Notes under the pieces: generated by a model
The model's database searches: none
Seen by the model: only the letters and a program-made list of their open reading frames with translations
Told to the model about the DNA's origin: nothing
Program-made: the position numbers and the translations under genes
DNA from: an uncultured cyanobacterium
GTDB taxonomy: Bacteria; Cyanobacteriota; Cyanobacteriia; Cyanobacteriales; Cyanobacteriaceae
Assembly (NCBI GenBank): GCA_963710605.1
Contig: CAVQBA010000004.1
Span: 1,088,001 to 1,152,000 of the forward strand
Length of the DNA stretch: 64,000 nt
Reading direction: 5' to 3'
Part shown: positions 5,261 to 61,807 of the stretch, one piece after another
How positions within the stretch are numbered: position 1 is the stretch's first letter
How the letters are laid out: each line of letters starts with the position of its first letter

Positions 5261-5553
5261 CTCATCTGACAATTAGCTATTTTTTTAGAGTTATCTTCAA
5301 TTAATTCTCTGTGATTGAGCCATAGTTGATTTAATTCAGATTGATTTTTTAAAATATAGCTAAATGAATTTATAACTGCACTTTTTATGTCGATTGAATT
5401 CTCCTCTTTGTAAGGGGAGATGCAAGAGGGGTTGGCGAAAGTAGAAGTAATCACAAATTCATTCGGCTATCGCTATTACCTCTAAGATTGTGGTGAAGCA
5501 TAACTAATCACTAAAATACTCAAAATCTTCCATTTTCCGAAGATAAAATCACC

Positions 5554-5568
5554 ATGCGATAATTGCAT
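5554..5568 (+). promoter_or_regulatory. Putative NtcB (LysR) box upstream of nirA
   Basis: ATGCGATAATTGCAT (AT-N11-AT inverted repeat) just upstream of the NtcA box. Confidence 0.6.
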
Positions 5569-44573: not shown

Positions 44574-46710
44574 TCACCGTTCGATCGTTAAACCCCATCC
44601 ACGTAATACTTCCGCTACGCTCCAAGCCTGAGCAAAACAACCTCTGGGAATAAAAGGAGTATCTCCATCAAAAATTTCGCTAATACTTCCAATACAACCA
44701 TCTGTTAAATGATTCTCGATCGGTAAAAGAAAACTACGAGCTAACTCAGGATTTTTATATACTTGTAAATGAGCTTGAACAAAATGACCGATTAACCAAC
44801 TCCAAGTAGTACCTTGGTGATAACTGACATCCCGTTGTAATCGATTTCCGCCATAAATTCCGATATAGTTAGGATTATCGACATCAAGCGATCGCAATCC
44901 ATAAGAAGTTAATAATTTTTGTCCGACTCGATCGACGATCGTTTTCTGTTGTAATGGTTCTAAAAGCGAATCATATTTATCTAAATTCAAGCAAGGTAAA
45001 GAAACAGCAAAAATTTGATTGGGACGAAAACTAGAGTCATTACCATCAGGAGAATCAATTACATCGTAGCAGTAACCCCCTGCTTGATACCAAAACCGAG
45101 AGAAATTCGATCGTGTTTTATTTGCCATTTGCTGATATTTAGTTGCAGACTTACCTAAAACATCGGCAAAATATTGCATACAAACTAAAGCATTGTACCA
45201 AAGTGCATTAATTTCTACAGGTTTACCAATACGAGGTGTAACTACCAAATCTCCAACTTTGGCATCCATCCAAGTCAATTGTACTCCTTCAACACCTGCA
45301 TAAAGTAAACCATCATCATCAATCTGAATGTTATAACGAGTACCTTTAATGTGATGATTAATAATATCGGCTAATAAAGGAAATAATTCGGTAAGAAATT
45401 CTTTATCTTCAGTGGCAACGTAGTAGCTTCGGATTGCTTCAAAATACCAAAGAGTCGCATCTACAGTATTATATTCTGGTACTTCACCTACATCGGGAAA
45501 TACATTGGGTAACATTCCCTTATCTAGATATTTGAGCAAAAGTAGAAAGTATTGTTTTAGCAAGATCGTAACGTCCACAAGATATAGTTAATCCTGGTAA
45601 ACTAATCATCGTATCTCTACCCCAATCGGTAAACCAAGGATAACCTGCAACGATCGTTTTACCTTCAGGGTTACCGGTTAAGGGACGATCGACAATAAAT
45701 TGGTCGGCGGCTAAAACCAAATGTTCGAGCCAGTTAGGTAGATTTGAAAGTTGATTGGTAGTACGAAAAAGATTAATTAATTCTTGCTCTTTTGCTCTTT
45801 TTTTCTCTTGGCTTTTTTCCCCTATCGTTTTTCTTCCCCAACATTTACGAAATTCACTCCCACTCCACCGATCTAAAGTACTAGCAATGATGGTTAAAGA
45901 ATCTCCAGGCTGTAAAATACAATTTCCCGTTGCCGCCAGTAAATTATCTTCAACAGCATTCAAACCCCGATATTCTTCTACTGCTAAAGCAAAATTTCGA
46001 TACCAAGTATTATTGATTTCCCAATTAAAATTATTACCAAACCATTTTGGCGTAATTGCCGAGAGATATAAATCTTTAGCGTCAAGAAAAGCCTTAATTC
46101 TTAAACTATAAATGCCTCCCCCATCTAATTTCTCTTGAGAGGAGAGGGAATCTATTGTTTCTGGTGGGCGAAGAGGAATTGCCGTAGAATCAATAGTATA
46201 TTTTTCCTGTATATTGTTTAGATCGTTACTACCGTGGTGATTGCGATAATTAACTAATGCTTTAAGGGATAAAGTTAAAGGCTGACTACCTCGCTTAAAG
46301 TAATAACGAATATAAGTTGTGTTTTCTCCCTGTTGCATCCAAATACGTTTTTCTAACAGCCCATCAGCAAAGGCAAAATTCCAAACTGGAGTCGTTCCTT
46401 CTAAATGAAAACTTTCTATATTTAGGTATCCTTGAGGTGCGATCGTACCATCAGCCCAATGGTTGGTATAGAGATCGTAATTTTGACCGTCGTAATTAAC
46501 AATCTCATCAAGTTTGGTTAAGAGTAAAGTTCTGGCTACAGGAGGCTCTAATGCACCAATCAGTAAGCCGTGATAGCATCTTGTTAATACACCTGCGATC
46601 GTCCCCGAAGCATAACCACCAATACCATTGGTAACTAACCATTCACGCGATCGAGCTACATCAAAGTTACTACATACTTCTCGTCCAAACTTGAGATTTG
46701 TTGTTTGCAT
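44574..46710 (-). CDS. Amylo-alpha-1,6-glucosidase / glycogen debranching enzyme (frameshift near 45534)
   Basis: EWLVTNGIGGY, AGYPWFTDWGRD, TWMDAK, YHQG, QAWS. Confidence 0.88.
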
Positions 46711-47027
46711 TTTATCATCGAATCGATCGTTGTCAGTTAAAATTATAGCAACACAAAAATAATTGGTTAAGACGTATTTTCTCTGTGTACAACCCCTCGT
46801 GTTTCTCCCCTTATAAAGAGGAGACTTTAATCGATAAATGCGGAAGTAATTGCCTTACTGCTATATTATTACAAACCAAAGAAAACTTGCAACAGTTTAT
46901 GTTAATAAGTCCCCCACTCTCCTACCCCCCTTTTGTAAGGGGGGACTAAGGGAGGATCAAGAAGATGCAAAATAGGCAGAGGGGTCGGGGATTTAGGGGG
47001 ATCTAAATTTAGGGTACTTTTTTAGTC

Positions 47028-48440
47028 TTAATTAACTACAGACAATTCTCTAATATCAGATACCTTACCGTTAATTGCCGCCGCAACCACCATAGCAGGA
47101 CTCATCAATAAAGTACGCCCTTGTGCTGAGCCTTGACGACCTTTAAAGTTACGATTAGAAGAAGATGCACTAATTTGGCTTCCTTGTAACTTATCAGGAT
47201 TCATCGCCAAACACATAGAACAACCAGGCTCTCGCCATTCGAAACCTGCTTCGGTAAAGATGTGATGTAAACCTTCTGCTTCGGCTTGTTTTTTCACTCT
47301 TTCTGAACCCGGCACGATAAAAGCCTTGACATTTTGAGCAACTTGATGTCCTTTAGCAAACTTTGCCGCTTCTCTCAAATCGCTGATTCTGCCATTAGTA
47401 CAACTACCAACAAAGCAAACATCGATCGGTATATCTTTAATTTGAGCACCGGGAGTTAATTGCATATATTCAAAAGCTTGAACGGCAATTTGTTTATCAT
47501 TTTCAGCTAATTTGTCGATAACGGGTAAAGATTCGTTGATACCGATACCTTGTTCTGGTGTAATACCCCATGTAATAGTAGGTTCAATGTCACTGGCATT
47601 GAATGTAACAACATCATCATATTCAGCGGACTCATCGCTACGAATACTTTGCCACCAAGTTACGGCTTTATCCCATGCTTCGCCTTGAGGAGCAAAATCT
47701 CTTCCTTTGAGGTAATCATAAGTGATTTGGTCTGGATTGATATAACCGCATCTTGCCCCACCTTCGATCGACATATTACAAACGGTCATTCTTTCTTCCA
47801 TACTCATCTTGTCAAAGGTTGTACCGCTATATTCATAAGCGTAACCAACACCACCTTTGACTCCTAATTTTCTGATGATATGTAAAATGACATCTTTAGC
47901 ATAAACACCCTCAGGTAAATCGCCATTAACTTCAATTTTTCTGACTTTCAATTTAGCTAAAGAGAGAGTTTGTGAGACTAATACATCTCTTACTTGAGAA
48001 GTACCAATACCAAAAGCGATCGCTCCAAATGCACCATGAGTGGAGGTATGGGAGTCACCACAAGCGATCGTCATCCCCGGTTGAGTTAAACCTTGTTCGG
48101 GGGCAATTACATGGACAATACCTTGATTACCTGAATTGGTATTATAAAATTTGATGCCGTATTCTTGGGTATTATTTTCTAATGCTTGCATCATCTCTTC
48201 TGCTAATGTATCGGCAAAAGGACGAGATTGATCTTCTGTCGGAACGATATGATCTACTGTAGCTACTGTACGTTGAGGATATAATACTTCTAATTTTCGT
48301 TCCCGAATCATCGCAAATGCTTGAGGGCTGGTGACTTCGTGAATCAAATGTAATCCGATAAAAAGTTGAGTTTGTCCTGAAGGTAATGTACCTACTGTAT
48401 GCAAATCCCAGACTTTATCGAATAGTGTTCCTTTACTCAT
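47028..48440 (-). CDS. leuC: 3-isopropylmalate dehydratase large subunit
   Basis: [38 protein letters not shown]. Confidence 0.97.
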
Positions 48441-48629
48441 ATTATTTCAACTTTAAAAATATAATCTATTATCTCTATCGATCGAGCGATCTTTATTATC
48501 TGTTAGAAACGATGATTTAACCAATTATAATAACAAATTATTAACAATTGACGACGGATATTTAATAGTTGATAATTATTTTTCTTTTAGAATATTTAAA
48601 GCGATAATTTGTCAACATATATTTTTAAA

Positions 48630-48860
48630 ATGCCAAACAACAAGTGGAAATTAGAAGGATACGATACCTTCGATCGTGAATCTTATCCTCTCGTAGGTGA
48701 ATTTGAGACAGAAGCAGATGCAATTACGGCGGCTAAGTCTCGTTTAGCTGATTTAGAGCAAACACAACCATCTTCGTCTAGCGGTGGTCAACAAGATGGA
48801 ATTCAAGATCGAGTTTATGTTATTCGACGAGATCAAACAAGATTTAGAGTTATGCCCTAA
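48630..48860 (+). CDS. Small hypothetical protein (cassette cargo)
   Basis: 77-codon ORF; WKLEGYDTFD, GIQDRVY. Confidence 0.6.
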   Translation: MPNNKWKLEGYDTFDRESYPLVGEFETEADAITAAKSRLADLEQTQPSSSSGGQQDGIQDRVYVIRRDQTRFRVMP

Positions 48861-48924
48861 CTCTGAGGAAAATAAAAATGATAGTAATCAACGACATACA
48901 GTTAGCTAACTTATTGTCTAAAAA

Positions 48925-49428
48925 ATGAGCGTCCTTAGTGATATTCAAAAATGGTATGCTTCAAATTGCGACGGTGAATGGGAACACAGTTACGGTATTT
49001 CGATCGATACTCTTGATAATCCAGGTTGGTCTATTACGGTTAATCTTAAAGATACAAATTTGGAAGACAAAAATTTTGAGCCTTTTAAGAACAGGGTTTC
49101 CGAAGATAGATGGATTTCTTGTTTAGTAAAAGACAATAAGTTTAGGGGTGCAGGAGACGAAACGAAACTTGAGGAAATTTTAAAAGTATTTTTAGATTGG
49201 GCAAAAAACATTAACGAAGATTGGTTAAAATCATCGACTCAGCTTTGTGAGGAAGAATTACAATTTTTAGAAGATGCAGAATTTATAAATTTACTTGGCG
49301 AAGAGATTGGTACGGAGCTTTGTAAAAGTGAAGGTTGTATACGTAAACGAATAGAGAATAGTGTAATGTGTCGCCGTCATCATTTTGAAATGGTTAAGGA
49401 GCGTTCATTTCCCGATAGTATCAGCTAA
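48925..49428 (+). CDS. Immunity protein 53 (Imm53)-like with C-terminal Cys/His extension
   Basis: WYASNCDGEWEHSYGISIDTLDNPGW signature. Confidence 0.8.
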   Translation: MSVLSDIQKWYASNCDGEWEHSYGISIDTLDNPGWSITVNLKDTNLEDKNFEPFKNRVSEDRWISCLVKDNKFRGAGDETKLEEILKVFLDWAKNINEDWLKSSTQLCEEELQFLEDAEFINLLGEEIGTELCKSEGCIRKRIENSVMCRRHHFEMVKERSFPDSIS

Positions 49429-49513
49429 CAAGTTAATAGAGGGACTAACAAAACAGCTACTTTGTCAATTTTTAAGATTTACTATGAATGCTTACCTCAA
49501 CTATTATTTATTA

Positions 49514-49616
49514 GTAATTCATTAACTTTTCAACGATCGACCACACTTTAATTAAATGACTTTGTTGCAAACCATTAATCCTCTATAAATATTTAAACTC
49601 TACAACAATCAATCGC
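49514..49616 (-). repeat. Decayed copy A of the glycosyltransferase 3' end
   Basis: acgatcgaccacactttaattaaatgac...aaatatttaaactctac aligns to about 58035-58139. Confidence 0.8.
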
Positions 49617-49741
49617 TCCAATTATATTGACAAAATGTTAGTTATAAAGAGAAGAAGACGGGGTAAATATAATCCAACAAGTGAGATAAAATTAAGCATA
49701 ATGTAAATAAGTATATATCGAACAAATGTCGATCTAGATTC

Positions 49742-50848
49742 ATGAGAGTTGTTCTTACTCAATTTTGCGGTCAAAGAATTTTAAGGTACTGTATTTTGAT
49801 TCGTATAGAAGCTAGTAATGTTTGTACTCAAATTTGGACATTATCTACTTTCGATCCTTACAGAGAAATCTATATTTGGCTGGGAAAAATTCGGGATTCT
49901 CAGCTACCTGCAAGAATGATAATTGATGAGGAAGGTAGAGGAGTAGAACTTTTTGCCGAGAGAATAAACAGTGAATTAGTCAACTTTTATATAAAGCCAT
50001 GGGCTTCTAATAATAACGATCGGACACATCTGAATACTACGCTTAAAAGCGATGAATTAGTAAGTGCTTTTTGCAACGGAATTCTTGAGTTTCTAGGAAA
50101 TAATTACTGTTTACCAGAGTGGTCTAATATTGATAATCTTAGCAACTTGAACTGGAGAGCATTACTTCAGCCTAGAAATCATGCCGATCGCAAATGGGAA
50201 ACACGACTGGCTATTTATCAAGGAAAATATCGTAAAATTCCGAATTCTGAGCGTAAATGTCTGGAGAAATCTTTAACGATAGATCGGCAATGGCTAATTG
50301 TTCTATACTATGCTCTTGAGAAAGTTGCTTTGCTTGGATGTTCTGGGCAGACATACGAATCCTATGGATTTATGAGCCTTTATCAAAATCTTCTTGTGGA
50401 TCTTATTTTAAACGAAATAGATTCAGATTGGTACGAAGAACGAGAGACGGAAATTGAACAAGGGTTTACAGATCTTGTTAAAATATTTAATCGTAGTCGA
50501 AATCCTGAACGCATACGTCTTGAAATTCAGGCTAGGTTATCAACTTTAAAGTTAGGTCAACTTGTTGATGGTAGAGTTTGTCAAATAAAGCCATACGGTG
50601 TATTTGTTGATATCGGAGGACTCCGTGCATTGTTAAGTACCTCTACAATTTCTCAATTGCCGATCGAATCGCCAGATCTGGTTTTTCAAAATGGTGACTG
50701 GGTTAGAGCAATAATTGTATGGATGGATATTGAAAAAAGAAGAGTATTACTTTCAACAAGTGATTTAGAGCCAGAACAAGGTGATATGTTGTGCAATCCC
50801 TTACACGTTTATCAAAGAGCAGAAGAAATGGCAAATAGATATAATTAA
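49742..50848 (+). CDS. Unknown N-terminal domain fused to an S1 RNA-binding domain
   Basis: C-terminal GRVCQIKPYGVFVDIGG...LSTSDLEPEQGDM...AEEMA resembles the last S1 repeat of cyanobacterial ribosomal protein S1. Confidence 0.75.
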   Translation: MRVVLTQFCGQRILRYCILIRIEASNVCTQIWTLSTFDPYREIYIWLGKIRDSQLPARMIIDEEGRGVELFAERINSELVNFYIKPWASNNNDRTHLNTTLKSDELVSAFCNGILEFLGNNYCLPEWSNIDNLSNLNWRALLQPRNHADRKWETRLAIYQGKYRKIPNSERKCLEKSLTIDRQWLIVLYYALEKVALLGCSGQTYESYGFMSLYQNLLVDLILNEIDSDWYEERETEIEQGFTDLVKIFNRSRNPERIRLEIQARLSTLKLGQLVDGRVCQIKPYGVFVDIGGLRALLSTSTISQLPIESPDLVFQNGDWVRAIIVWMDIEKRRVLLSTSDLEPEQGDMLCNPLHVYQRAEEMANRYN

Positions 50849-50958
50849 AATGTACTATCAAGGTTATCAAACAAATAAAGTACGATCGAGTTAAAAACAT
50901 TTGTTGGAAAGTAGTTACAATAAATAAAGTATGTTTTGATAATTTGAGTGAGGTAAGC

Positions 50959-51177
50959 ATGAGTGAGTTACTAGAACGTGCAATTGCTAAGTTGCAAAAC
51001 TTGCCTGAAAGTGAGCAGAACGCCATCGCTTCGATCGTTCTGGAGGAAATTGAAGATGAACGGCGTTGGGATGAGTCATTTTCCAGTTCCCCTGATATTC
51101 TTGCTAAACTCGCCGCTTCGGCAATGGTTGAATATCACGCTGGTGAAACCCAAGAACTTGACTCAGAAAAACTGTGA
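50959..51177 (+). CDS. Putative antitoxin
   Basis: GAGG RBS; acidic; GTGA overlap with the toxin. Confidence 0.7.
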   Translation: MSELLERAIAKLQNLPESEQNAIASIVLEEIEDERRWDESFSSSPDILAKLAASAMVEYHAGETQELDSEKL

Positions 51178-51443
51178 ACTCACGTACTACTGCCCAATTT
51201 CGTAAATTGTTTGCTGATTTACCCAAACAAGCTCAACAGCAAGCCCGTACCGCTTATAGTCAGTTCCAGAAAGATCCTAGCTATCCAAGCCTGCGTTTTA
51301 AAAAAGTTCATCCAGAACTTCCAATCTTTTCTGCTCGCATTAGTAAAAATTACCGAGCGGTTGGTCAGTTAGAGGTAGATACAATGATTTGGTTTTGGAT
51401 TGGTTCGCACGCTGAATACGACAGTTTGTTAAAGCAAATGTAG
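51174..51443 (+). CDS. ParE/RelE-like toxin
   Basis: YPSLRFKKV, SARISKNYRA, WFWIGSHAEY. Confidence 0.8.
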   Translation: MNSRTTAQFRKLFADLPKQAQQQARTAYSQFQKDPSYPSLRFKKVHPELPIFSARISKNYRAVGQLEVDTMIWFWIGSHAEYDSLLKQM

Positions 51444-51459
51444 AAATCCAGCATCATAA

Positions 51460-51697
51460 TTAATTATTCATTAACTTCTGACCGATCGACCATACTTTAA
51501 CCAAATGACCTTGTAACAAAGCCTAATACCCGCAAATATTTAAACCCTACGATATCTGAATCGAGTTTTAAGGTAGTTTGTAAAGCTTTTTCACCTTTTT
51601 CGCTCAAACCAATCATAAAGATCAAGAAAGCTCAAATAAGCGTGATTATAGGCATTGTTTGGATATAAACTAACTAGTTTTTTAGCAGTAGCGATCG
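51460..51697 (-). repeat. Copy B of the glycosyltransferase 3' end (~240 bp) ending at CGATCG
   Basis: Aligns to about 58034-58272 with small indels; ends at CGATCG 51692-51697, matching CGATCG 58267-58272. Confidence 0.92.
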
Positions 51698-51754
51698 ATC
51701 GATTTTTTGTTGTCTAGTCAAGTAAATTTATCAATACATATTTTTAGGATAGTT

Positions 51755-52897
51755 TTAAGCGTCTTGGTCAGTAGGTTTTGGTAGATCGAAGTAAAAAGTA
51801 CTACCTCGACCCAAATCCGACTCAACACCAAGTTTTCCATCATGTTGTTCGACAATTCGCTGACATAATGCTAACCCGATACCGCTACCTTCGGCTCGTT
51901 GTTCGCCCCCTCGGACAAATAGTTGAAAAATTTTCTCTTGCTCTTCAGGCAAAATACCAGGGCCATTATCTGTAAGCCGAACTAGATAGCGATCGTTTTT
52001 TAATTCACAATAAACCATAACAACAGGCGTTGACGTTTGATTATGAACGATGGCGTTTTTAATCAAATTACTCACCAGATTTTCTAATAGTTTAGCATTA
52101 CCTTTTACTATAGGAAGGTTACTCCAATCGATCGAGGCTTGATGGGTATCGATCGTATTTTGCAATCCATTTACCGCTTGCTCGACGACAAGATTCAGAT
52201 CGACAGGTTCAAATTTAAGATTGCGTCGGGATTTAAGTTTGCCATATTCTAATAAGGCGTTTAGCGTTTGGTTCATTTTACGAGAAGTCTGCAAGCCCAT
52301 TTGCACGATTTTTTGGTTACGGCTTTCTAGTTCGCTTTCTTGGAGTAAATCTAAACTAACTGTGACCACGTTAAGCGGGTTACGTAGTTCGTGAGCCACC
52401 GTATGGCTAAAATTTTCTAGCTCTCGATTGCTTTCGTGAAGCCTTTCGAGTGTATCTCGCAGTTGAAACTGACGCTGACGATTGCTCAAACAAACTTGTA
52501 CGATGGAAGTAAATTCATGACGCTGGAGCGGTGTTTCTAACAGGGTGACGCCGCGTTGATGTCGGGCAGATTGTAACATCGTCATACAGGTAGAAAAATG
52601 GCGACAATTTTTGAGTAAAAAAATTAGAGGAATATCAGACCAATCAGGCTGTTTGTTCAAGCACTCCGCTAGTCGATCGAAATTATTGTCGATCGCAAGC
52701 ACTTCTTCGGTAATAATTACCAAGCTGACTTCTGCACGAATAGCAGTTATTACCGTCTCGATCGAATCCGTAGCCATACAGTCTATTTCTTCAATTTCAA
52801 GCAGTTGTCTTACCGCCTTAGCATTGTGAGCCAACTTAGTTGAAATCACAACAGTATCCGCAGAAAGTTGGGAAGAATCGTTAAATTTAGAGATCAT
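51755..52897 (-). CDS. Sensor histidine kinase with a degenerate receiver-like N-terminus
   Basis: AHELRNPL H-box, NLIKNA, DNGPG, GIGL; QPDWSDIPLI. Confidence 0.88.
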   Translation of the reverse strand: MISKFNDSSQLSADTVVISTKLAHNAKAVRQLLEIEEIDCMATDSIETVITAIRAEVSLVIITEEVLAIDNNFDRLAECLNKQPDWSDIPLIFLLKNCRHFSTCMTMLQSARHQRGVTLLETPLQRHEFTSIVQVCLSNRQRQFQLRDTLERLHESNRELENFSHTVAHELRNPLNVVTVSLDLLQESELESRNQKIVQMGLQTSRKMNQTLNALLEYGKLKSRRNLKFEPVDLNLVVEQAVNGLQNTIDTHQASIDWSNLPIVKGNAKLLENLVSNLIKNAIVHNQTSTPVVMVYCELKNDRYLVRLTDNGPGILPEEQEKIFQLFVRGGEQRAEGSGIGLALCQRIVEQHDGKLGVESDLGRGSTFYFDLPKPTDQDA

Positions 52898-54404
52898 TTT
52901 CTATCAATTTTGTCGGTTCGCCAATATATTTAGGAATACCAGAAAGTATGCCCGAAAATTGTTCGAGGGGATCGCCAATATGGATGCCATTCGCATCGAA
53001 CCTAATTTCGCGAATCCCCTTTTCGTGAGCACCGTAGCGTTTTTTGTACACCCCGATCGCTTTATGTATAGCTCCTTTAGCTTCAAAATGCCGTAGTAAC
53101 AATACAGAATCAGCTAAGTAACTAATATCAACACTCCCCTCTAATCGATCGCCAATCACCCCGTGTTGTGCCACCACTAACAGAGTCAAGACATTTTGCC
53201 GATTGAGCATAATTAACAGATCGTGCATTAGGGTGACGAGCTTTTCGTTGCTTGGCATAGAATTAGCGTAGCCCGTCAAGCTATCAATTAAAACAATCTT
53301 AGCTCCCCATTCTTTTACATCCTCATTGATTTGAGCCCTAAATTTACCTGGGTTGCTGTTACTTAAGCCTAATTCACGAATCCGAATTTGGTCTGGATAA
53401 TCCTGCGGATTTAAGCCAATATCAAGTCCTTCAGATCGTTTGAGGAAAGTACTTGCAAGTTCATCAAACAGAAAAACACTAGCTTTTCCACCTTGACTGA
53501 TGAAGTTATGAATAAACAAACTAGCAAGAGTCGTTTTCCCCGTACCAGAAGGCCCAATTAATAAAGATGAAGTTCCCGTAAGTAGATAGCCGCCAATAAG
53601 TTTATCAAAAGAATCGATACCGCTTGACATGGGCTGATAAGATTCTTTATCATCATTAGGAGTCTGAGAAATTAGATGAGGAGCTTGATGCTGAATATGA
53701 TAAATGTTCATACCTTGGCTGGTAATTTCCATATCGTGAATTCCTGACTGAAAATTACTGCCTCGGAGTTTGGATACTTGCAGATACCGGTAATCTTGAC
53801 TGTAAGTAGTCGTCACTCTCGACAGGTTAATTACACCGTGGGCGATGGAAACTAGTTCGCAATCGCCAGGAGCCAGCTTTTGGTCGTCTGTCAACATGAT
53901 GGTGATGTTACGATTGTGCATATAGTCCCGCAGTAATAGTAAATTACGTCGATAAACTAACTTATCATTAGCTAACATCCGTAAATAGGCAATACTGTCA
54001 AATATTACACGTCGGGGCTTTACCGCTTCGATGACTTCTATAAATTGAGTCATTGTTGTTTCTAACTCAAGATCGGAGGTATCGAAAATGGTCTGCTGTT
54101 GTTCTGTTGCTTCTAGTGCTTGTAACTTACCAAATTCTTCAAAAACGATACCATCAGGATCGATACCCACCGAAGTGGCTGTCTGTTTTATGCTTTGTAC
54201 CCTTTGAGATAAGGCAATGCACAATACTTTTTCATCTGCCTCTACTCCCGATCGTAAAAAATGTAATCCCAGAATTGTTTTTCCTGTTCCCGGCTCACCA
54301 TTGACAACATAAATTTCTCCTTCAGGAAGACCGCCACAAATTATGTCATCAAGGGAGGCAATCCCTGTAGAAATTCTTACTAAAGAGCTAGAGGCATCTT
54401 TCAT
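52887..54404 (-). CDS. KaiC-like / RAD55-family double-domain ATPase
   Basis: Two Walker A motifs GEPGTGKT and GPSGTGKT; KLRGS; DISYLAD. Confidence 0.85.
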   Translation of the reverse strand: MKDASSSLVRISTGIASLDDIICGGLPEGEIYVVNGEPGTGKTILGLHFLRSGVEADEKVLCIALSQRVQSIKQTATSVGIDPDGIVFEEFGKLQALEATEQQQTIFDTSDLELETTMTQFIEVIEAVKPRRVIFDSIAYLRMLANDKLVYRRNLLLLRDYMHNRNITIMLTDDQKLAPGDCELVSIAHGVINLSRVTTTYSQDYRYLQVSKLRGSNFQSGIHDMEITSQGMNIYHIQHQAPHLISQTPNDDKESYQPMSSGIDSFDKLIGGYLLTGTSSLLIGPSGTGKTTLASLFIHNFISQGGKASVFLFDELASTFLKRSEGLDIGLNPQDYPDQIRIRELGLSNSNPGKFRAQINEDVKEWGAKIVLIDSLTGYANSMPSNEKLVTLMHDLLIMLNRQNVLTLLVVAQHGVIGDRLEGSVDISYLADSVLLLRHFEAKGAIHKAIGVYKKRYGAHEKGIREIRFDANGIHIGDPLEQFSGILSGIPKYIGEPTKLIENDL

Positions 54405-54644
54405 TAAATAATTGGTTTTTGTTTAATTGAATACTATCTCTACATATATTAACAGAAGTCAAACTAGACTCAGACAAATGTTTGCCGTATTTTTTTTAGA
54501 TACCTTTGTTTGCGGGTATATCGTCGGCAACTAATATTTATCAAAAGTTTGAGCTTTATTAAAAAAATTTGGGCTATTTTCTAAACGATAATGGCTAATA
54601 TCGTTCCGAGGAATATAATATAAGTAAAAACAAGTGACGAGGTA

Positions 54645-55091
54645 ATGGCGAAACTCTACTACCGTGGTATGGCACAGCAAGATGGTAAATCAAAAATAGG
54701 TAGAAGTGCCAGACTATTAGGAATTAGACTTAACATCGATATAAACGTTGAGCAAATACCAATAGGTTATCTTGACAAGCAAGGATATTTGTTACCAGAG
54801 TCATAGCGTCAGATTTCAGAAAAACTAGTAACCGTTGCTATTAAAGAGAATAAGGGAATGTCTGTGTCTTTATCGATCGACAGTTTACCTGCATTTCGTA
54901 AACCTGCCAAATTTGGCGGAAAGGGAAAAGATACTCTTTGGCAAATTGATGACAGCTATATCATAAAAGATTTACAGGCTGTTCAAGATAGCCCGACACA
55001 CGTTAGCATTATGCCAAGAGTTACAATGACTTTAGAAAGGTACGAGACAGCATTGGCAAATACCCAAAATTATTGGCAAAAAGTTGACTAG
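54645..55091 (+). pseudogene. Putative Tse2/ADP-ribosyltransferase-like toxin with an internal TAG
   Basis: MAKLYYRGM...GMSVS...THVSIMP; TAG at 54804-54806; GAGG RBS. Confidence 0.5.
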
Positions 55092-55112
55092 TAAAATATA
55101 CGAAAATAGGAG

Positions 55113-55649
55113 GTGGCAAAAATGGCATGGATATTTAGTTTATCAGCAGAATGTGGTTGCGATCGAATCAACGCAGATAAATTTGCTCAACATTTTGAGG
55201 GAATGTCATTGTTGCTATCAAACGATCGTCAGTACAAATGTCTTACGGACATATTCCAAGACATAGAAGAAAATTGGTGGTGTCGAGTTTTACCAAGTAA
55301 TCTTAGTGAAGTGGGAATAGAAGCCAATGAAAGTGCTTATTTAATGACAGAGTTAGGTATTTCACTTTATCAGTCTCTACGATTTGCGACAACCTTTCGT
55401 TATGCACTAGTTGGTGTTGAAGTGGATGAATTTAGAACTTACAGCGAACTGATTGAAGATTCTGCTAATTTATCTATACCAGGATTAGTTTTGAATAAGA
55501 CACTTGCAATAGATTTAGAAATATTATCAGCTTTTCGAGCCTTTAGTTCTAATTATGTTTGGCAACCTTACGCAGGAGAAATCTACAATCCACTCATGAC
55601 ATACCCAAATTTAAAAAATAAGTTGAATGAATTGTTAGCTGTAATTTAA
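55113..55649 (+). CDS. Hypothetical protein, probable immunity/antitoxin partner
   Basis: AGGAGG RBS; lies immediately downstream of the toxin-like ORF. Confidence 0.6.
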   Translation: MAKMAWIFSLSAECGCDRINADKFAQHFEGMSLLLSNDRQYKCLTDIFQDIEENWWCRVLPSNLSEVGIEANESAYLMTELGISLYQSLRFATTFRYALVGVEVDEFRTYSELIEDSANLSIPGLVLNKTLAIDLEILSAFRAFSSNYVWQPYAGEIYNPLMTYPNLKNKLNELLAVI

Positions 55650-55656
55650 TTTAAGT

Positions 55657-55958
55657 TATAGTTGTTTAAATTAAGTTTTCTTGGTCGGCGTTCGGTGTCT
55701 TGGTGAGCGTTCGGTGTCTTGGTGAGCGTTCGGGTCTTGTCGAGCGTTACGGTGTCTTGTTCGCGTGGTGTCTGGTGAGCATTCGCTTGCGTCTTACGCT
55801 CCTGAGCGGGTTCTCACCGCTTGCGACTTGCCGTATCGAAAGCGGGTCTGACCGTTTGAGACAGTATAAAAATAGTAGAAAAAAACATAAAACCCGCCTT
55901 GCAATCAATTGTCAAGGCTAACAGATACCGTTTAATAAATTAAACTAAAAGAAAATAT
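55657..55958 (+). mobile_element. MITE (34618 family) carrying a nested GC-rich insertion
   Basis: Matches the reverse complement of 61830-61991 once 55679-55853 is removed. Confidence 0.75.
55679..55853. repeat. GC-rich tandem repeat (~19-bp unit gtgtcttggtgagcgttcg)
   Basis: About 5-6 degenerating units; GTTT on both flanks. Confidence 0.75.
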
Positions 55959-55964
55959 AATTGT

Positions 55965-56030
55965 ATTCGGATTATCAGCGCACCAGAGGCAACTAAAAAT
56001 GAGCGGAGGTTTTACGAAGATGGAAAATAA
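55965..56030 (+). pseudogene. C-terminal remnant of a BrnT toxin
   Basis: IRIISAPEATKNERRFYEDGK* overlapping the next gene. Confidence 0.7.
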
Positions 56031-56241
56031 TCATGAGCTAGAAGATGATTTAAGACCTGAATATGACTTTAGCAAGATGCAAGGTGGTATTAGGGGAAAA
56101 TATGTCGATCGCTATCAGGCAGGAACAAACATCGTATTACTCGAAGCTGATGTTGCTCAAGTGTTTGCGACAAGTGACGAGGTTAATAAGGCACTTCGAT
56201 TACTTATGCAAATAGCCCAAAGGCAGAAGCCTAATACCTAA
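56020..56241 (+). CDS. BrnA-like antitoxin
   Basis: DLRPEYDFS..GIRGKY, LEADVAQVF..VNKALR. Confidence 0.7.
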   Translation: MENNHELEDDLRPEYDFSKMQGGIRGKYVDRYQAGTNIVLLEADVAQVFATSDEVNKALRLLMQIAQRQKPNT

Positions 56242-56374
56242 TTATTCATCAACTTTTGACCGATCGACCATACTTTAACTAAATGCCCCTGTAACAAAGC
56301 ACTTATACCTTCTAAATATTTGAACTTTACGACATTTGGATATAAACTAACTCATTTTTTAGTAGTAACGATCG
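56238..56374 (-). repeat. Copy C of the glycosyltransferase 3' end with a 102-nt internal deletion, ending at CGATCG
   Basis: Aligns to about 58036-58137 plus 58240-58272. Confidence 0.92.
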
Positions 56375-56475
56375 ATACCGTAGATGTTGCACGGATATAT
56401 TCAAAAACATAGAAGAAAATTGAATGACTACGCAAGTTAGAATACAAGGGTAATCTTTGAAACGAGGTTAAGCTA

Positions 56476-56751
56476 ATGGTAATTCGAGAGCCACGCTATA
56501 GCAAAGAGGAATTCGCCCAGCGAGGTGATTATCTCTATGAAAATCAGGTAAAACATCAAGTTGAGGCGGGAAATGATGGCAAAATTGTAGCGATCGATAT
56601 CGAAACAGGAGCTTTTGAGGTAGCTGAGACACCGATGGTAGCAGTCGATCGATTGTACGAACGTGAACCCGATGCTCAACCTTGGGTAATTCGGATTGGA
56701 CATCGAGCAGTCTTTCGTTTTGGTAGTCGTAGTCTGAGGAAGCCTGTATGA
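56476..56751 (+). CDS. Small protein typically paired with clan AA proteases (DUF5678-like)
   Basis: GKIVAIDIETG...PDAQPWVIRIG; ATGA overlap with the protease. Confidence 0.65.
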   Translation: MVIREPRYSKEEFAQRGDYLYENQVKHQVEAGNDGKIVAIDIETGAFEVAETPMVAVDRLYEREPDAQPWVIRIGHRAVFRFGSRSLRKPV

Positions 56752-57122
56752 TGTTCGGTGTGGTCAATAATAATTGTGAAGCGGTCGTCAAAGTTGCTGT
56801 AGGGCGTATCGGTTCACCTAAAAGAATCGTTGATGCAGTTATTGATACAGGATTTACTGGCTTTTTGTCTTTACCACTTTCTATGATTAGGGAGCTTGAC
56901 TTGCCTTGGCATTATAGAGATATTGGTACATTAGGCGACGGGAGTGAAGTCGTATTTGAAATCTATAAAGGGGCTGTAATTTGGGATGGTCAGAATAAGA
57001 TTATTGATGTGGCGGCTTCGGATGCAGAGCCACTAGTGGGAATGAGTTTGTTTTATGGGTTTAAGCTTGAAATCGAGGCTGTTGAAGGTGGTATTGTCAC
57101 GATCGAAGCTTTGAATAAGTAG
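56748..57122 (+). CDS. Clan AA (retropepsin-like) aspartic protease
   Basis: AVIDTGFTG catalytic motif; PLVGMSL. Confidence 0.85.
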   Translation: MMFGVVNNNCEAVVKVAVGRIGSPKRIVDAVIDTGFTGFLSLPLSMIRELDLPWHYRDIGTLGDGSEVVFEIYKGAVIWDGQNKIIDVAASDAEPLVGMSLFYGFKLEIEAVEGGIVTIEALNK

Positions 57123-57476
57123 CAAAAGACGATTGGTGAGGCTTAATCTAACCATCATTTAGCGATTGACTACTAATTAAAAATTTTGTTGATGTTGGGT
57201 TTCATGCTTCAACCGTTCCCTACTACTGCACCAGAACTTTTCTCTATCTTGTAAAAACAGTACTATAGATCTCTTTTTCTTTTTCCATCATGAATAATGA
57301 TTTTGAAACTTAACCAAATCAACAACCATTCATTCGTTTTTGTTAAATCTTACGCCTAACTTTATATCAGAAAAAGGAGCAAACATTATCTTGCAATTGT
57401 GGTATCATATGCTCATTGATAGACTATTGTACTGCAATTGTGGTCTAATTATAAGTTGGATGCTCAATAATTAATC

Positions 57477-57800
57477 ATGTTTATTAATCCAATGTGGGAC
57501 ACTGAGAGCCAAAGAATTGGTAAAATGAAATGTTCTCCACTCGCATATAATCTACATATTATTTCGGATTTAATCGGTTTGGTTTCTATGCTTGTATTAT
57601 TTGGAGGCTTTGTATCATTTCTTCATACAAATTGGAAATATTCAATAATATTAATTCTTTACTCTTTTATTTCTGCTTTTCTTGGAAATTTACTTTACAG
57701 ATATTCTTGGAAAATTATAGAGAGGAAAGGTTTTGAATATGATTATGAAAATTGTATTTGTTATTGGTATGAGAATGGAGAAATAAAATCTTACAAATAA
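57477..57800 (+). CDS. Small two-TM hypothetical protein
   Basis: Two hydrophobic segments; RKGFEYDY tail. Confidence 0.6.
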   Translation: MFINPMWDTESQRIGKMKCSPLAYNLHIISDLIGLVSMLVLFGGFVSFLHTNWKYSIILILYSFISAFLGNLLYRYSWKIIERKGFEYDYENCICYWYENGEIKSYK

Positions 57801-57817
57801 ATCTGAAGAAGAATGAT

Positions 57818-57901
57818 AATGACCTTGTAACAAAGCACTAATCCCCTCCAAATATTTAAACTCTACGACATCTGGATCGAGTTTTAAGGCAGGTTGCAAA
57901 G
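57818..57901 (-). repeat. Copy D of the glycosyltransferase 3' region
   Basis: Encodes LQPALKLDPDVVEFKYLEGISALLQGH, identical to the gene, with 4 synonymous changes. Confidence 0.93.
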
Positions 57902-58030
57902 TCCGAACGTCAATCTTGTAGGGTGCGTTTTCTACTGTAACTTATACTACTCTACTGATAAATTTCTGGAAACGCACCACACTTACAAACCTCTAAAAGT
58001 AAGCCGTTACAGTTTAAGCTTAATATTTAA

Positions 58031-60565
58031 TTATGAATTATTGATTAATTTTTGACCGATCGACCATACTTTAACTAAATGCCCCTGTAACAAAGCACTA
58101 ATACCCTCTAAATATTTAAACTCTACGACATCTGGATCGAGTTTTAAGGCAGGTTGCAAAGCTTTTTCGCCTTTTTCGCCATTCCAATCATAAAGATAAA
58201 GAAAGCTCAAGTAACCGTGGTTATAGGCATTGTTTGGATATAAGCTAACTAATTTTTTAGCTGTGACGATCGCAGGTTCTACTTTTTGTTGTAAAACTTG
58301 AGACAATAATAATGTATAAAGATAATCAGAATTATTTTCGGTTTGCAGTCGATGTAGTAAGGTTTTTTCGGTTACTTTTAAATAGGCTTGATCGGGATCG
58401 TATTGATTAATTCTACCAACTGTTGCAAAAACAGGCTCTAACCCTTCTATTCCTTCACCTAAAGCAGGGGCAAGACGATTAATTTCACTGACTAAATCTA
58501 ATTCTCTTTGAGCAACGGGAGAAGTTATATTTTGCTCGACTATAATTTGTGTTGGCGGTATGGTTAAAGGTTTTGTTTTTCCTGTTGTTTTATTTAATAA
58601 TTGTGCTTCTAAAATATAGTTACCGTCGGGTATATTTTCAGGAATAAACATCGCTGTATTTTCGATTACTTGAAAATCTTTATTTAATTCATTTTTAGCT
58701 AAGTTATCAAAATATAAATTACTCATTCCTAAACTGTGGTCATGAGTCCATTTTATCGTTTTATTTTCTGATGAATACCATGTCAATAAAACGATCGTTT
58801 CTTCTAATTCTTGAGCTGTTCCAGTCCATTTATAAGTAATATCAACTGTCTTATTTTGACTTACTTGTGAAGGAAAAATAACCTCATTTAATTCTAAATT
58901 GCTATTAGTTGAATTAAGAGGATTAACAATAGTTTGTAACTGCTGTCTTTGATATAGTTGCAAATAACTTTCGTCGGGTAAAAGCCATTTATCTAGTAAA
59001 CTAAAATCACCACCATTTTCGACTAAATCAACTGTCATTTTCTGTGCGTCGGGAATCGAACCTTGTTCGCCTGTTTTCGTCAGAAACCAATCTAAAGCAT
59101 TGACATCTTGAGGTACTTCTTTTTCTCTTACTCCGACTTGTCTGCCATATACTTGTTGCGAATCGGGAATCGAGCCATAAAAAGAAACGTTTGATTGATT
59201 GATTTTACTAGTAGAGGGCAAAACCCCGATATTCATTCTCAGATAAGGATTAGTTTGTTTTGCTTTTTCGACTAATTCAGGTACAGCCCATTGTTTTCCT
59301 GTATAAGGATAATTTTCCATTTTTGGGCTGAGTTTATTAGTAATAAAACTTCCTCCTAAAGGGAAAAGATTGAGTAACATTAAAATCAAAGCGATCGATA
59401 CTGTTACTATTTTGAACCACTTCTTTTTTTCTCCTCGATAACTATAAATTAAAGCACTAACTATTAAGGTACAAATAGGTAGTAAGGGCAAAATATAACG
59501 AGCATCTTTATTAATATTTAAAGACGATAATAAGTATCCACCTAAGATAAAAGTTATTAACCAGAAAGTAATAGTTTTAATTTTGTTTTCTGGTAGAGTA
59601 TTTTGATAAAAGTTTTTTTGCAAATATAACCAAATATTTTTAGTTTTGACTGAAGAGTTTTTAAAATATTTAATTGCTAAATAGATAAGACAAAAAAGAC
59701 TAACTAATAATAAAAATGAGGATAATAAGTAAGGAGAAACCTCAGCATAAAATGTCCATGCTTTAAGAGTATTTAAACTAGGATCGCCTTCAATGATAGC
59801 AGAATCGATCGTCGCTCTTTTTCCTGAAGTAAAAATGACTAACCAATTAGTACGATACCAAGGATAAAAAAGGATAATTGCTGACAATGACATTAAAATT
59901 ATTTGCCCGACTCTATGCCATTTTCGTTGCCAAATTGAAAAGATACAAACAAAAAGAAAAGGAAAAAAGAGAAAAAAAGCAAATGTTTGTTTGAGTAACA
60001 ATCCTAAACCGAAAGAAATACCTGTTAATAGACTTAGCCACCACGAAGATTTACCTTGACTGAAATACCAATAACTCAGACAAGTAAAACTAAAAGTAAT
60101 CATGACAGTGAGAGGATAATCTAATAAAAATTCTCGCCGAAAATAATATAACCCTGGTATTAAAGGAATTAAGACACAAGCGAGTAAAGCTATTCGTTGG
60201 TTAAAAAATAATTTACCTAGATAAAAAATACTGAAAATTAGTAATAAACTAAAACCCGAAAAAACTAAATTACCGCTACTCAAACTAGGGGGTAAGATAT
60301 GAAAACACAAACCCGTAATGATATAAATCAACGGTGGAATTTTATTTGAAAGTAACCAAAACTCACGCCACGATGATAAATCAAAAATATCGAGATTGAC
60401 TAACCCTTCTTTGTAACCCATCACCCCATTAAGGTAGTCAGCGGGATCCCATGATGGTACGCTATTATCTAAACTAAACCAAACTCGATCGATTATTAAA
60501 CCAATTAGCCAAATCGATATTAGGATTAAAATAGGGTTCGTTTTTTTGATTATATTTGCTGACAT
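58031..60565 (-). CDS. GT39/ArnT-like lipid-carrier glycosyltransferase with C-terminal TPR-like repeats
   Basis: PSWDPADY, KIPPL, LLDYP, LLKQT, KDARYILP; multiple TM helices; TPR-like tail. Confidence 0.85.
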   Translation of the reverse strand: MSANIIKKTNPILILISIWLIGLIIDRVWFSLDNSVPSWDPADYLNGVMGYKEGLVNLDIFDLSSWREFWLLSNKIPPLIYIITGLCFHILPPSLSSGNLVFSGFSLLLIFSIFYLGKLFFNQRIALLACVLIPLIPGLYYFRREFLLDYPLTVMITFSFTCLSYWYFSQGKSSWWLSLLTGISFGLGLLLKQTFAFFLFFPFLFVCIFSIWQRKWHRVGQIILMSLSAIILFYPWYRTNWLVIFTSGKRATIDSAIIEGDPSLNTLKAWTFYAEVSPYLLSSFLLLVSLFCLIYLAIKYFKNSSVKTKNIWLYLQKNFYQNTLPENKIKTITFWLITFILGGYLLSSLNINKDARYILPLLPICTLIVSALIYSYRGEKKKWFKIVTVSIALILMLLNLFPLGGSFITNKLSPKMENYPYTGKQWAVPELVEKAKQTNPYLRMNIGVLPSTSKINQSNVSFYGSIPDSQQVYGRQVGVREKEVPQDVNALDWFLTKTGEQGSIPDAQKMTVDLVENGGDFSLLDKWLLPDESYLQLYQRQQLQTIVNPLNSTNSNLELNEVIFPSQVSQNKTVDITYKWTGTAQELEETIVLLTWYSSENKTIKWTHDHSLGMSNLYFDNLAKNELNKDFQVIENTAMFIPENIPDGNYILEAQLLNKTTGKTKPLTIPPTQIIVEQNITSPVAQRELDLVSEINRLAPALGEGIEGLEPVFATVGRINQYDPDQAYLKVTEKTLLHRLQTENNSDYLYTLLLSQVLQQKVEPAIVTAKKLVSLYPNNAYNHGYLSFLYLYDWNGEKGEKALQPALKLDPDVVEFKYLEGISALLQGHLVKVWSIGQKLINNS

Positions 60566-60593
60566 ATAGAGAGTAGAAAAATATTCATTAATT

Positions 60594-61807
60594 ATGACAA
60601 AAAAAATTGCCATTATTGGGGCAGGAATAGCAGGTTTAACTATCGGTAAGAATTTACAGGCAGAAGGTTTTGAGGTTAATATTTTTGATAAAGGACGGGG
60701 TGTTGGTGGTAGAATGTCCAGCAGAAGAACAAATTGGGGTTATCTTGACCACGGTTGTCAATATTTTACCGCCAAAGATTCTTTATTTGCTAGTTTTATT
60801 CAGGAAAATGACGAACTTGTTCAAGTTTGGCAAGGAAAGTTTGCACGTTGGCAAGATGGTAATTATACACCTTTAGAGATTGCGACAATGAATCTCTCAA
60901 TCCCCTTCAATTCCCCCGTAAATCCCCTTAACCCAATCCCCCCCAGTAACTCAATCCTCCCTCAATCCTCCTTTAGTAAATCAATCCCCCCTCAATCCTC
61001 CTTTAGTAAACCAATCCCCCCAATCCCCCACAACGTAGCAATGCTACGTCTCTACAAAGGGGGGAGGAAAATTTAGATAAATTAAACAAAACAGGTGTAA
61101 CAAGATTAAATAAAAATGTTATTACTCATTCTCGTTACGTGCCGACGAAGGCGATGAATAATCTGTGTAAATCGATCGCTACAACACTTGATGTTAAATT
61201 ACAAACTAGAATTGTCAATCTGACTAAAAATCAGAAGAAATGGACTTTAACTGATGAAAATGCTAATCAATATAGTGGTTATGATTGGTTAATTGTCACT
61301 GCACCACCTGCCCAAACGCAAGATTTGTTAACAAGTCATACTGTCATTGCTGAAGAGATAGCCCAGATAAAAATGCTTCCTAATTTTACTTTGATGTTAA
61401 CTTTAGCTGAGGAGATGAATCTTCCTTTTGATGGCATCGAATTACAACACCCGATTTTAGGTTGGATTGCCGTCAATAATAGCAAACCTTCACGAGGAGA
61501 AAAAACAAGTATTGTGATTCAATCTAACTTTACTTGGGCGACTGATAATCTGGAAAACAATCGAGATACTATTACGCAACAATTACAAAATAGTGCTAGT
61601 GAAATTATGGATATAGATTTGGATAAATGTCTGTATAAATCATTACATTTATGGCGTTATGCAATACCTGCACAGAAGAATGAGGCTGGTTGTTATATCG
61701 ATCGTGAAAATGCGATCGGTGTTTGTGGAGATTGGTGTATCGGCGGTAAAGTAGAAGCGGCTTTTAATAGTGCTAATTTATTAACAGATTCGATCGTCGA
61801 TCGTTAA
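60594..61807 (+). pseudogene. Renalase-like NAD/FAD-dependent oxidoreductase interrupted by a repeat-derived insertion and frameshift
   Basis: IIGAGIAG, GGRMSSRR, DHGCQYF in the 5' part; HLWRYA, GDWCIGGKVEAA in the 3' part; C-rich repeats at about 60890-61070. Confidence 0.8.

Follow-up and report, generated by a model that had tools for sequence, protein, structure and literature searches.

Displaced gene ends behind a cyanobacterial glycosyltransferase gene: a possible layered scar of insertions joined at or near CGATCG

Behind an intact glycosyltransferase gene of an uncultured cyanobacterium lie four partial copies of the gene's own 3' end, with small, unrelated modules between them. How could such a stack have built up while the gene itself remained whole? 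The locus is part of a 64,000-nt stretch of contig CAVQBA010000004.1 (assembly GCA_963710605.1, positions 1,088,001 to 1,152,000; G000:C4:1088001-1152000 in our own numbering), which we call the window; coordinates without a contig label are window positions. The gene belongs to the PMT/PMT_2 family (the PMT gene, below), and the gene has a match in 34 of the 41 genomes searched, the host genome G000 included. The host genome comprises 3.93 Mb at 33% G+C in 7 contigs, with an estimated completeness of 84.9%, and the stack lies within a contig of 1.42 Mb. We give about an even chance to the stack having arisen by serial, integrase-free, homology-anchored insertions behind this conserved gene, joined at or near the hexamer CGATCG, the core of HIP1 (highly iterated palindrome 1).

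Four displaced ends of one gene

The sequence repeated downstream is the last ~260 nt of the PMT gene. Four copies were recovered alike by a repeat search, by BLAST and by pairwise alignment; all lie on the strand of the gene and close to where a preliminary description of the window, made from its letters, had placed them. We call them A to D, as in Table 1. A BLAST search of the gene end against all 7 contigs found copies nowhere outside this locus. In A, B and C the homology stops at the stop codon of the gene (4 nt beyond it in A, 1 nt beyond in B and 5 nt short in C). Alleles that were followed by different genes would show just this. Copy B continues, past a 4-nt gap, with a further match of 13/15 (51713-51699 against 58292-58278 of the gene), and contains three other small indels. 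Copy C has an in-frame gap of 102 nt (34 codons) relative to the gene, placed at an ATCCARA microhomology. The missing 34-codon unit looks TPR-like, which is only a reading of the sequence, and a Pfam search of the last 360 aa of the PMT protein returned no TPR. Copy D, trimmed on both sides, lacks the stop-codon end of the gene. It matches the gene perfectly over its first 52 nt, and its 4 differences, all synonymous, fall in the remaining 32 nt.

The copies differ from the gene mostly by synonymous changes. Read in the frame of the gene, copy D has 4 synonymous and 0 non-synonymous changes, and the ratio of non-synonymous to synonymous divergence (dN/dS) is 0.07-0.12 in C, 0.21 in B and 0.34 in A. 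Pooled over the copies, synonymous differences amount to 32.5 over 109.6 sites and non-synonymous ones to 29.5 over 433.4 sites, a pN/pS of 0.23. Only 30 of the 62 changes are non-synonymous, whereas the expected share is 0.80 under neutrality (P=3.9e-8) and 0.69 if a local duplicate had decayed neutrally beside a constrained gene (omega 0.55; P=7.8e-4). The dN/dS comparison proposed in the preliminary description thus rejects neutral divergence, and its idea that the copies are allelic gene ends, and not local duplicates, is supported by this synonymous bias (P=0.0008 against 0.55). Since the synonymous divergence (dS) of the copies is 0.28-0.55 and D and C have few disabling lesions, most of the divergence built up while both versions were functional and under purifying selection, i.e. 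in different lineages.

The copies are also graded. No disabling lesion is found in D, one stop codon in C, 4 indels and one stop in B, and 2 stops within 30 codons in A. Hence, both lesions and dN/dS climb with distance from the gene, although the numbers are small, and the ranking D, C, B, A given earlier is correct. The gradient fits a stack in which the newest layer adjoins the gene, in line with the polarised record that had been proposed. Mismatches are unevenly spread, both in copy D and, as mosaic blocks, at the other loci described below, and later gene conversion could cause this unevenness.

CGATCG at the breakpoints, at this locus and across the genome

The PMT gene contains six CGATCG sites, at 58057, at 58267 and at four positions further upstream, and copies B and C had been said to start exactly at the one at 58267-58272. 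This is so for copy C, which begins exactly on CGATCG (56369-56374). Copy B begins at a doubled site, CGATCGATCG (51692-51701), or else 20 nt upstream. Copies A and D, described earlier as lying beside degenerate sites, are each 3 nt from a one-mismatch variant of CGATCG (null P for a distance of 3 nt or less, 0.046); neither has a perfect site. The clearest joint is that of copy C. Its 5' flank of 48 nt (56375-56422) shows 77% identity to a stretch inside the 178-aa open reading frame (ORF) of the stack, o178, and this stretch, too, begins at a CGATCG, that of o178 itself. Two unrelated sequences, the PMT end and an o178-like fragment, are therefore visibly fused at the hexamer in a chimeric joint, PMT|CGATCG|o178-like. 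The doubled site occurs at 2 of ~15 joints against ~0.5 expected, which is not significant. With two perfect sites, the association with CGATCG is weak at this locus alone; it is strong genome-wide.

CGATCG is the fourth most frequent hexamer in this 33% G+C genome, with 8449 copies (2.15 per kb). The HIP1 octamer, GCGATCGC, has 708 copies, and the flanks of CGATCG are A/T-biased (TCGATCGA, 1206 copies). Given these counts, the iterated unit in this genome is the hexamer core and not the canonical HIP1. We scanned the genome for ORFs having a nearby same-strand copy of part of themselves. Automatic rules, which excluded repeats with more than 5 genomic matches, repeats within an ORF and pairs of ORFs of similar length, left 33 unique pairs of an intact gene and a fragment. 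Among their 66 fragment boundaries, 15 lie within 10 nt of CGATCG. For 51 control hexamers with 5000-14000 copies each, the mean is 3.3 boundaries (sd 1.7) and the maximum 8. The inner boundaries, i.e. those within the gene, account for 12 cases out of 46 (null 0.055, p=5e-6), while the outer boundaries, which lie past the gene ends and serve as a built-in control against alignment-end artefacts, account for 3 out of 20 (p=0.09). The breakpoint association claimed from this locus therefore stands when set against background, with both the outer boundaries and the 51 hexamers as controls.

The arrangement of an intact gene, cargo and a displaced allelic 3' end was found at no fewer than four other genes, on other contigs as well (Table 1). 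The fragment starts at CGATCG in three of these four loci, and the changes are again biased towards synonymous sites (pooled pN/pS 0.25; P=2.4e-7 against 0.55). The PMT locus is not special: that its layout is shared elsewhere is the most informative result of this analysis. Mirror images of this layout exist as well: a 5' fragment lies upstream of the intact gene, with 1.2-10 kb between the copies and the CGATCG of the fragment 3-6 nt from the inner breakpoint. In the pair on contig C7, a perfectly identical block of 230 nt lies between diverged flanks, which suggests gene conversion.

Cargo, recombinases and relatives

The stack extends to a leuC-like gene and contains four modules (Table 1). 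Most of the cargo annotated in the preliminary description was recovered: the Imm53-family and S1-domain proteins, the ParE-like pair, the KaiC-like ATPase with its histidine kinase and the aspartic protease. The ADP-ribosyltransferase-like toxin is retained as a partial, Tse2-like fragment, and the BrnT/A pair was confirmed by neither Pfam nor NCBIfam. PADLOC assigned none of 10 stack proteins to a defence system, and no nuclease family was found in the ORFs of the stack by Pfam, NCBIfam or PADLOC. A MITE-like (miniature inverted-repeat transposable element) sequence in module 2 recurs in part well over 100 times, with every one of the seven contigs carrying copies, and the 73-aa 'ORF' inside it (55700-55921) is probably not a gene.

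The density of CGATCG in the cargo modules (2.1-2.9 per kb) is like that of the genome (2.15 per kb). The donors of the cargo would therefore have been CGATCG-rich relatives with the same motif bias, which is consistent with allelic gene ends. The cargo itself is patchy among relatives. The S1-domain protein has a full-length homologue in one of 40 relatives (52% identity), the KaiC-like protein has homologues of 32-35% identity in five genomes of other families, and no cargo homologue adjoins a PMT orthologue.

Table 1. Features of the stack (window positions) and similar loci elsewhere in the genome (contig:position)
Feature	Position	Strand	Remarks
PMT/PMT_2-family glycosyltransferase gene, intact, 860 aa	58031-60613	minus	Pfam PMT and PMT_2 matches
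Internal CGATCG of the PMT gene	58267-58272		starting point of copies B and C
Unique spacer, PMT stop codon to copy D, 129 nt	57902-58030	minus	contains the imperfect inverted repeat
Copy D, internal 84-nt piece	57901-57818	minus	matches gene 58161-58078, 80/84
Module 1	56375-57817		between copies D and C
Module 1: hydrophobic ORF, 107 aa	57477-57800	plus	
Module 1: clan AA aspartic protease	56748-57122	plus	
Module 1: 91-aa partner	56476-56751	plus	overlaps the aspartic protease
Module 1: 48-nt fragment of o178-like gene	56375-56422		abuts copy C
Copy C	56240-56374	minus	56374-56335 = gene 58272-58233 (35/40); 56341-56240 = gene 58137-58036 (94/102)
Module 2	51714-56239		between copies C and B
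Module 2: 80-aa ORF	55999-56241	plus	
Module 2: MITE-like dispersed repeat	55654-55961		
Module 2: 178-aa ORF (o178)	55113-55649	plus	no family
Module 2: truncated Tse2-like ADP-ribosyltransferase fragment, 77 aa	54858-55091	plus	matches only the C-terminal half of the Tse2 profile
Module 2: KaiC-like double ATPase	52887-54404	minus	
Module 2: histidine kinase	51755-52897	minus	overlaps the KaiC-like ATPase
Copy B, longest copy	51456-51713	minus	51698-51456 = gene 58273-58030; 86% over 264 columns; 4 indels, 1 stop
Module 3	49608-51455		between copies B and A
Module 3: ParE-like toxin	51174-51443	plus	
Module 3: 77-aa partner	50944-51177	plus	upstream of the ParE-like toxin
Module 3: 368-aa protein with C-terminal S1 domain	49742-50848	plus	
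Copy A, most decayed	49504-49607	minus	matches gene 58130-58027, 83/104; 2 stops in 30 codons
Module 4	48441-49503		between copy A and the leuC-like gene
Module 4: Imm53-family protein	48925-49428	plus	
Module 4: 83-aa ORF	48609-48860	plus	
leuC-like aconitase-family gene	47028-48440	minus	bounds the stack
OmpR-type regulator locus	C2:201131-204667		cargo MazEF and an unknown ORF
GGDEF sensor locus	C4:899778-903770		cargo one unknown ORF
Enolase-superfamily gene locus	C6:128727-134803		cargo DUF4379 and helicase-methyltransferase
LysR regulator locus	C4:1328613-1333075		cargo FG-GAP protein
Mirror-image cases, 5' fragment upstream of intact gene	C1:291141/292611; C7:167846/174792; C5:263092/273270		

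The absence of an integrase from the window, claimed earlier, holds for tyrosine and serine recombinases. A six-frame search of the whole genome with PF00589 gave 8 matches, none within the window and the nearest at C4:640093, and PF00239 gave a single match in the genome, also outside the window; transposase families were not searched. Neither family was found in or near the cargo of the four other loci, and neither XisH nor HNH had a match in the window or at these loci. The spacer between the PMT stop codon and copy D has no second match in the genome, and a terminator scan found no terminator-like site in it; it holds an imperfect inverted repeat, GGTGCGTTT ... AAACGCACC. No tRNA or tmRNA was found at the locus, and no Rfam family reached its gathering score in 46000-61000.

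The genome encodes two intact C5-methyltransferases, whose genes adjoin nucleases like HinP1I and Eco47II. As both belong to these systems, a CGATCG-specific restriction system was discarded as a candidate. A third cytosine-5 DNA methyltransferase gene (C4:906410-907368, L037) is split by a frameshift at 907165: a 382-aa ORF carries the N-terminal motifs at its end, and a 231-aa ORF holds the remainder.

The relatives available for comparison are distant. The best PMT orthologue is 61% identical, and a genome of the same genus, 67% complete, has only a 33% match. The two upstream neighbours of the PMT gene were found together with it in one of 14 orthologous loci. Of 24 within-genus pairs, 7 have a conserved flank upstream and 4 a conserved flank downstream; the flanks are too rearranged to inform, and they gave no hotspot signal specific to the PMT locus. 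In one relative (G005:C2, L022), a direct repeat of 209 nt, 96.7% identical, occurs at 2488-2696 and 5347-5554. It begins 13 nt past the stop codon of the orthologous glycosyltransferase gene and recurs 2.65 kb further on, directly ahead of an 801-aa ORF. Three genes on the opposite strand lie in between, and there is no CGATCG at the repeat ends.

Two genes around the stack are themselves interrupted or incomplete. Upstream of the PMT gene, a gene of the FAD amine-oxidase type (60594-61807) is present as two ORFs, a 160-aa NAD-binding part and a 222-aa part with the Amino_oxidase C-terminal region; a 30-nt tandem repeat (60945-61004) lies directly ahead of the break, and in the relative G010 a gap of 22 nt separates the two parts. 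On the other side, a 396-aa ORF (45520-46710) combines a glycogen-debranching N-terminal domain with only the first 60 of the 367 positions of the GDE_C profile, and the gene may be truncated or frameshifted.

How the stack may have formed and what it may mean

The stack is best read as a scar in layers, left by no fewer than three or four integrase-free insertions, one after another. In each of them, DNA from a related, CGATCG-rich cyanobacterium would have brought its own PMT 3' end together with different downstream genes. This DNA would have been anchored by homology in the gene, through a homologous left crossover that we infer, and its far end would have entered the resident gene by an illegitimate joint on CGATCG or beside it. 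The gene would thereby stay intact with an imported tail and the cargo would come to lie behind its stop codon, while the resident tail, from the joint to the stop codon, would be displaced downstream and then decay. Repeated events would place the newest layer beside the gene and the oldest beside leuC, each module presumably having travelled with the copy upstream of it. Entry may have been by natural transformation or by another route, and CGATCG may have acted as mere microhomology or as a preferred site of breakage or recombination. Such a model accounts for the intact gene, the cargo at the stop codon and the displaced ends that start from CGATCG, and also for the allelic divergence, the polarity, the variety of target genes and the lack of recombinases. 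A broader version, in which the methylated HIP1 core is a preferred break-and-join point for incoming DNA and provides, together with one-sided homology, a general recombinase-free route of cassette addition in cyanobacteria, is more tentative and we regard it as doubtful. If it were true, each event would leave a displaced allelic gene end, stacks would be time-ordered logs of acquisition, and the hyper-abundance of the motif would be tied to gene exchange.

A number of observations weigh against serial insertion at CGATCG. Perfect CGATCG starts are found in only two of the four copies (B and C), both at the same site of the gene; A, D and the response-regulator locus are without one. Moreover, if the 10-nt ACAACAAAAA match is real, copy B starts 20 nt upstream of the site, and its homology may thus begin ahead of the CGATCG. 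At joints across the genome, homology usually ends 0-7 nt outside the hexamer and not exactly on it, and the 33 pairs are a heterogeneous set that includes some paralogue-like repeats. Copy D fits the scheme poorly, as an internal piece that needs an extra deletion or a different event. Long identical blocks in some pairs point to later gene conversion, which may blur the arguments from divergence. No donor configuration was found: in none of the 14 orthologous loci (6-20 kb) is the gene followed by a copy of its end or accompanied by any of the cargo. Only weak histidine-kinase matches were seen, and neither leuC nor the other cargo ORFs turned up. A scan of metagenome contigs with the glycosyltransferase protein gave 48 pattern matches and no relative. 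In an underpowered replication on 0.8 Mb of the relative G010 (CGATCG at 2.0 per kb), which weighs neither way, we found 6 pairs, one of them a spurious self-alignment, with 1/6 inner and 0/6 outer boundaries near the hexamer (p=0.27).

The same joints could be deletion scars. A complete allelic gene with its cargo might have been imported in tandem, or as a circle by a single Campbell-type crossover, and then trimmed from CGATCG to CGATCG. Deletion between HIP1 sites is the only HIP1-linked rearrangement known to us with experimental precedent (smtB, PMC13756078; Robinson 1997, as cited in PMC4390886), and the chimeric PMT|CGATCG|o178-like joint fits a deletion between two CGATCG sites equally well. 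The genome has both downstream 3' fragments and upstream 5' fragments of intact genes, and deletions do act at this locus, as seen in the internal gap of copy C and the two trimmed sides of D. However, no longer intermediate occurs among the pairs, no fragment at the PMT locus reaches far into the 5' part of the gene, B and C would both have been cut to the same one of six sites, and a whole second copy still needs a way in. We consider trimming rather unlikely, although the data do not tell it apart from serial insertion. Decayed integrative islands or satellites, inserted site-specifically in the 3' end of the gene with an attP that supplies a replacement end, and having lost their integrase or used one in trans, would leave the copies as attL/attR remnants. 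The layout is that of serial integrase-mediated integration, as in islands at tRNA genes and gene ends, the accretion of integrative and conjugative elements (ICE) and cis-mobilizable elements (CIME), and tycheposons; B and C share a start point, and the 8 tyrosine recombinase matches lie elsewhere in the genome. Yet the window and the cargo of the four other loci lack a recombinase, the targets are many and unrelated, and the layers (0.3-4.8 kb) consist of unrelated small modules with no common backbone. The repeats moreover differ along their whole length, with no identical core, and what the breakpoints have in common is the generic CGATCG rather than a specific att sequence, all of which makes this explanation improbable.

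Clustering of breakpoints at one short palindrome is also what a CGATCG-recognising nuclease would produce, and in a homing process with co-conversion an endonuclease, encoded or exploited by a selfish cassette, would cut cassette-free alleles near the gene end, the repair copying in the cassette and the donor tail; a process of this kind has been proposed for mobile endonuclease ORFs that supply a gene with a foreign C-terminus. Against this, HNH and XisH had no match in the window or at the four other loci, Pfam, NCBIfam and PADLOC found no nuclease family among the stack ORFs, the intact C5-methyltransferases belong to HinP1I-like and Eco47II-like systems and not to CGATCG, and classical homing replaces sequence and leaves no displaced end. 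Such a process is hardly probable. Duplication of the gene end in place, by slippage or unequal crossing-over, followed by neutral decay and unrelated insertions between the copies, would fit copies that are short, direct and clustered, and a copy D that lies only 129 nt from the gene and starts with 52 identical nt. It is made very improbable by the synonymous bias, both here (P=7.8e-4) and at the four other loci (P=2.4e-7, each against omega 0.55), and by a dS of 0.28-0.55 in copies of which D and C carry few disabling lesions. As to collapsed or chimeric strain variants of the gene end, the assembly has 7 contigs and is not estimated to be complete, but the copies, with lengths of 84-264 nt and identities of 80-95%, have 0.13-4.5 kb of unique sequence between them and lie within a 1.42-Mb contig, and the architecture recurs at loci on other contigs, so that an assembly artefact is extremely unlikely.

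Among known mechanisms, the closest to serial insertion are homology-facilitated illegitimate recombination (HFIR) and Campbell-type insertion-duplication. HFIR is known from naturally transformable bacteria such as Acinetobacter, Pseudomonas stutzeri and pneumococcus. There too, homology holds one end of the incoming DNA, while the other end is attached through a short, G+C-rich microhomology; the process needs no element-encoded recombinase and adds foreign genes beside the anchor. At the PMT locus, the gene end and the displaced ends differ in an allelic, synonymous-biased way, as donor-type sequence past a homologous junction would, the crossover itself not being visible. It also has a microhomology joint between unrelated sequences (the chimeric joint, and 12/46 inner boundaries genome-wide); copies A and D, with their one-mismatch sites, do not. 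Unlike in HFIR, the joint lies inside the anchor gene, upstream of its end, which leaves the resident end in place as a duplicate; one hyper-abundant palindrome is preferred at the joints, and the events are four deep at one gene. Campbell-type insertion-duplication likewise yields an intact gene, an insert and a direct repeat, with the 5' limit of the fragment set by the content of the circle. It would require a circular donor with an exact CGATCG-to-stop fragment, whereas the cargo has no replicon or vector-like backbone, and it would be expected to give uniformly allelic repeats, whereas copy D has an identical block followed by 4 changes, a pattern that later gene conversion could also produce.

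The closest motif-specific precedents are HIP1-linked deletion and plasmid recombination. A HIP1-flanked smtB deletion in Synechococcus PCC 6301 (Gupta 1993) was read as illegitimate recombination (PMC13756078), HIP1 or its core has been tied to site-specific or illegitimate recombination (PMC4390886), and HIP1-promoted excision (Robinson 1997) and plasmid recombination in PCC 7002 (Akiyama 1998) are described (PMC13756078/PMC4390886). Elhai 2015 remarks that the evidence could rest on CGATCG as much as on the octamer (PMC4390886). HIP1 in homology arms increases transformation and recombination (bioRxiv 10.1101/2024.09.10.611283), and a Chi-like or uptake-signal role has been suggested (bioRxiv 10.1101/2024.09.10.611283, PMC13756078). 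These rearrangements resemble ours in having breakpoints on HIP1 or its CGATCG core; they are single deletions or plasmid events, whereas the footprint that we describe extends over the genome, at partial duplicates of genes on either side of imported cargo, in a genome where the hexamer far outnumbers the octamer (8449 against 708 copies).

Three other systems share the look of the stack. Integrase islands insert at the 3' ends of tRNA and protein genes and accrete in tandem, as do ICE/CIME at fda and the tycheposons of Prochlorococcus. They have in common with our locus that the gene receives a substitute end, that old ends pile up as direct repeats with the newest layer closest to the intact gene, and that the cargo consists of small accessory and conflict genes, and here direct 3'-end repeats do flank the cargo behind an intact gene. 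They differ from it in their site-specific recombinase at the edge, for which we searched the window and the four loci; no cis integrase was found at the five loci, and there is no shared backbone, the targets vary and the breakpoints are at generic CGATCG. The polymorphic toxin genes rhs and cdiA have orphan C-terminal modules downstream. Serial displacement of 3' ends, ordered old ends with small partner genes and, in our stack, an Imm53 gene and a Tse2-like fragment recall them. What is displaced at our locus, however, is no variable toxin domain but the conserved end of a glycosyltransferase of housekeeping type, and the cargo is not fused to the gene and mostly on the opposite strand. As in mobile integrons, a polar array of small, unrelated and mostly promoter-less cassettes lies by a fixed platform. 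No IntI-type gene is adjacent (PF00589, whole genome), there is neither attI nor attC, the punctuation consisting of PMT coding ends, and the cassettes are not uniformly oriented. The label 'integron-like' in the preliminary description is thus to be taken as an analogy only, there being no integrase, attC or common promoter logic.

A literature search that did not cover supplements returned no paper describing gene-end fossils, stacked or not, joined at HIP1 or CGATCG, nor HFIR of this kind in cyanobacteria. What is new here is the four-deep ordered stack, the dN/dS evidence and the genome-wide breakpoint statistic. The feature is real and would be a variation on known recombination routes. 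What HIP1 and its CGATCG core are for has been debated for some thirty years. Natural scars that join imported cargo to resident genes at this hexamer would be evidence from evolution for a role of the motif in recombination as genes are acquired. Displaced gene-end fossils of this kind may also serve as a reading aid, in that they would mark integrase-free insertions, show their relative order and sample the donor allele; such insertions would escape island finders keyed to integrases or tRNA genes.

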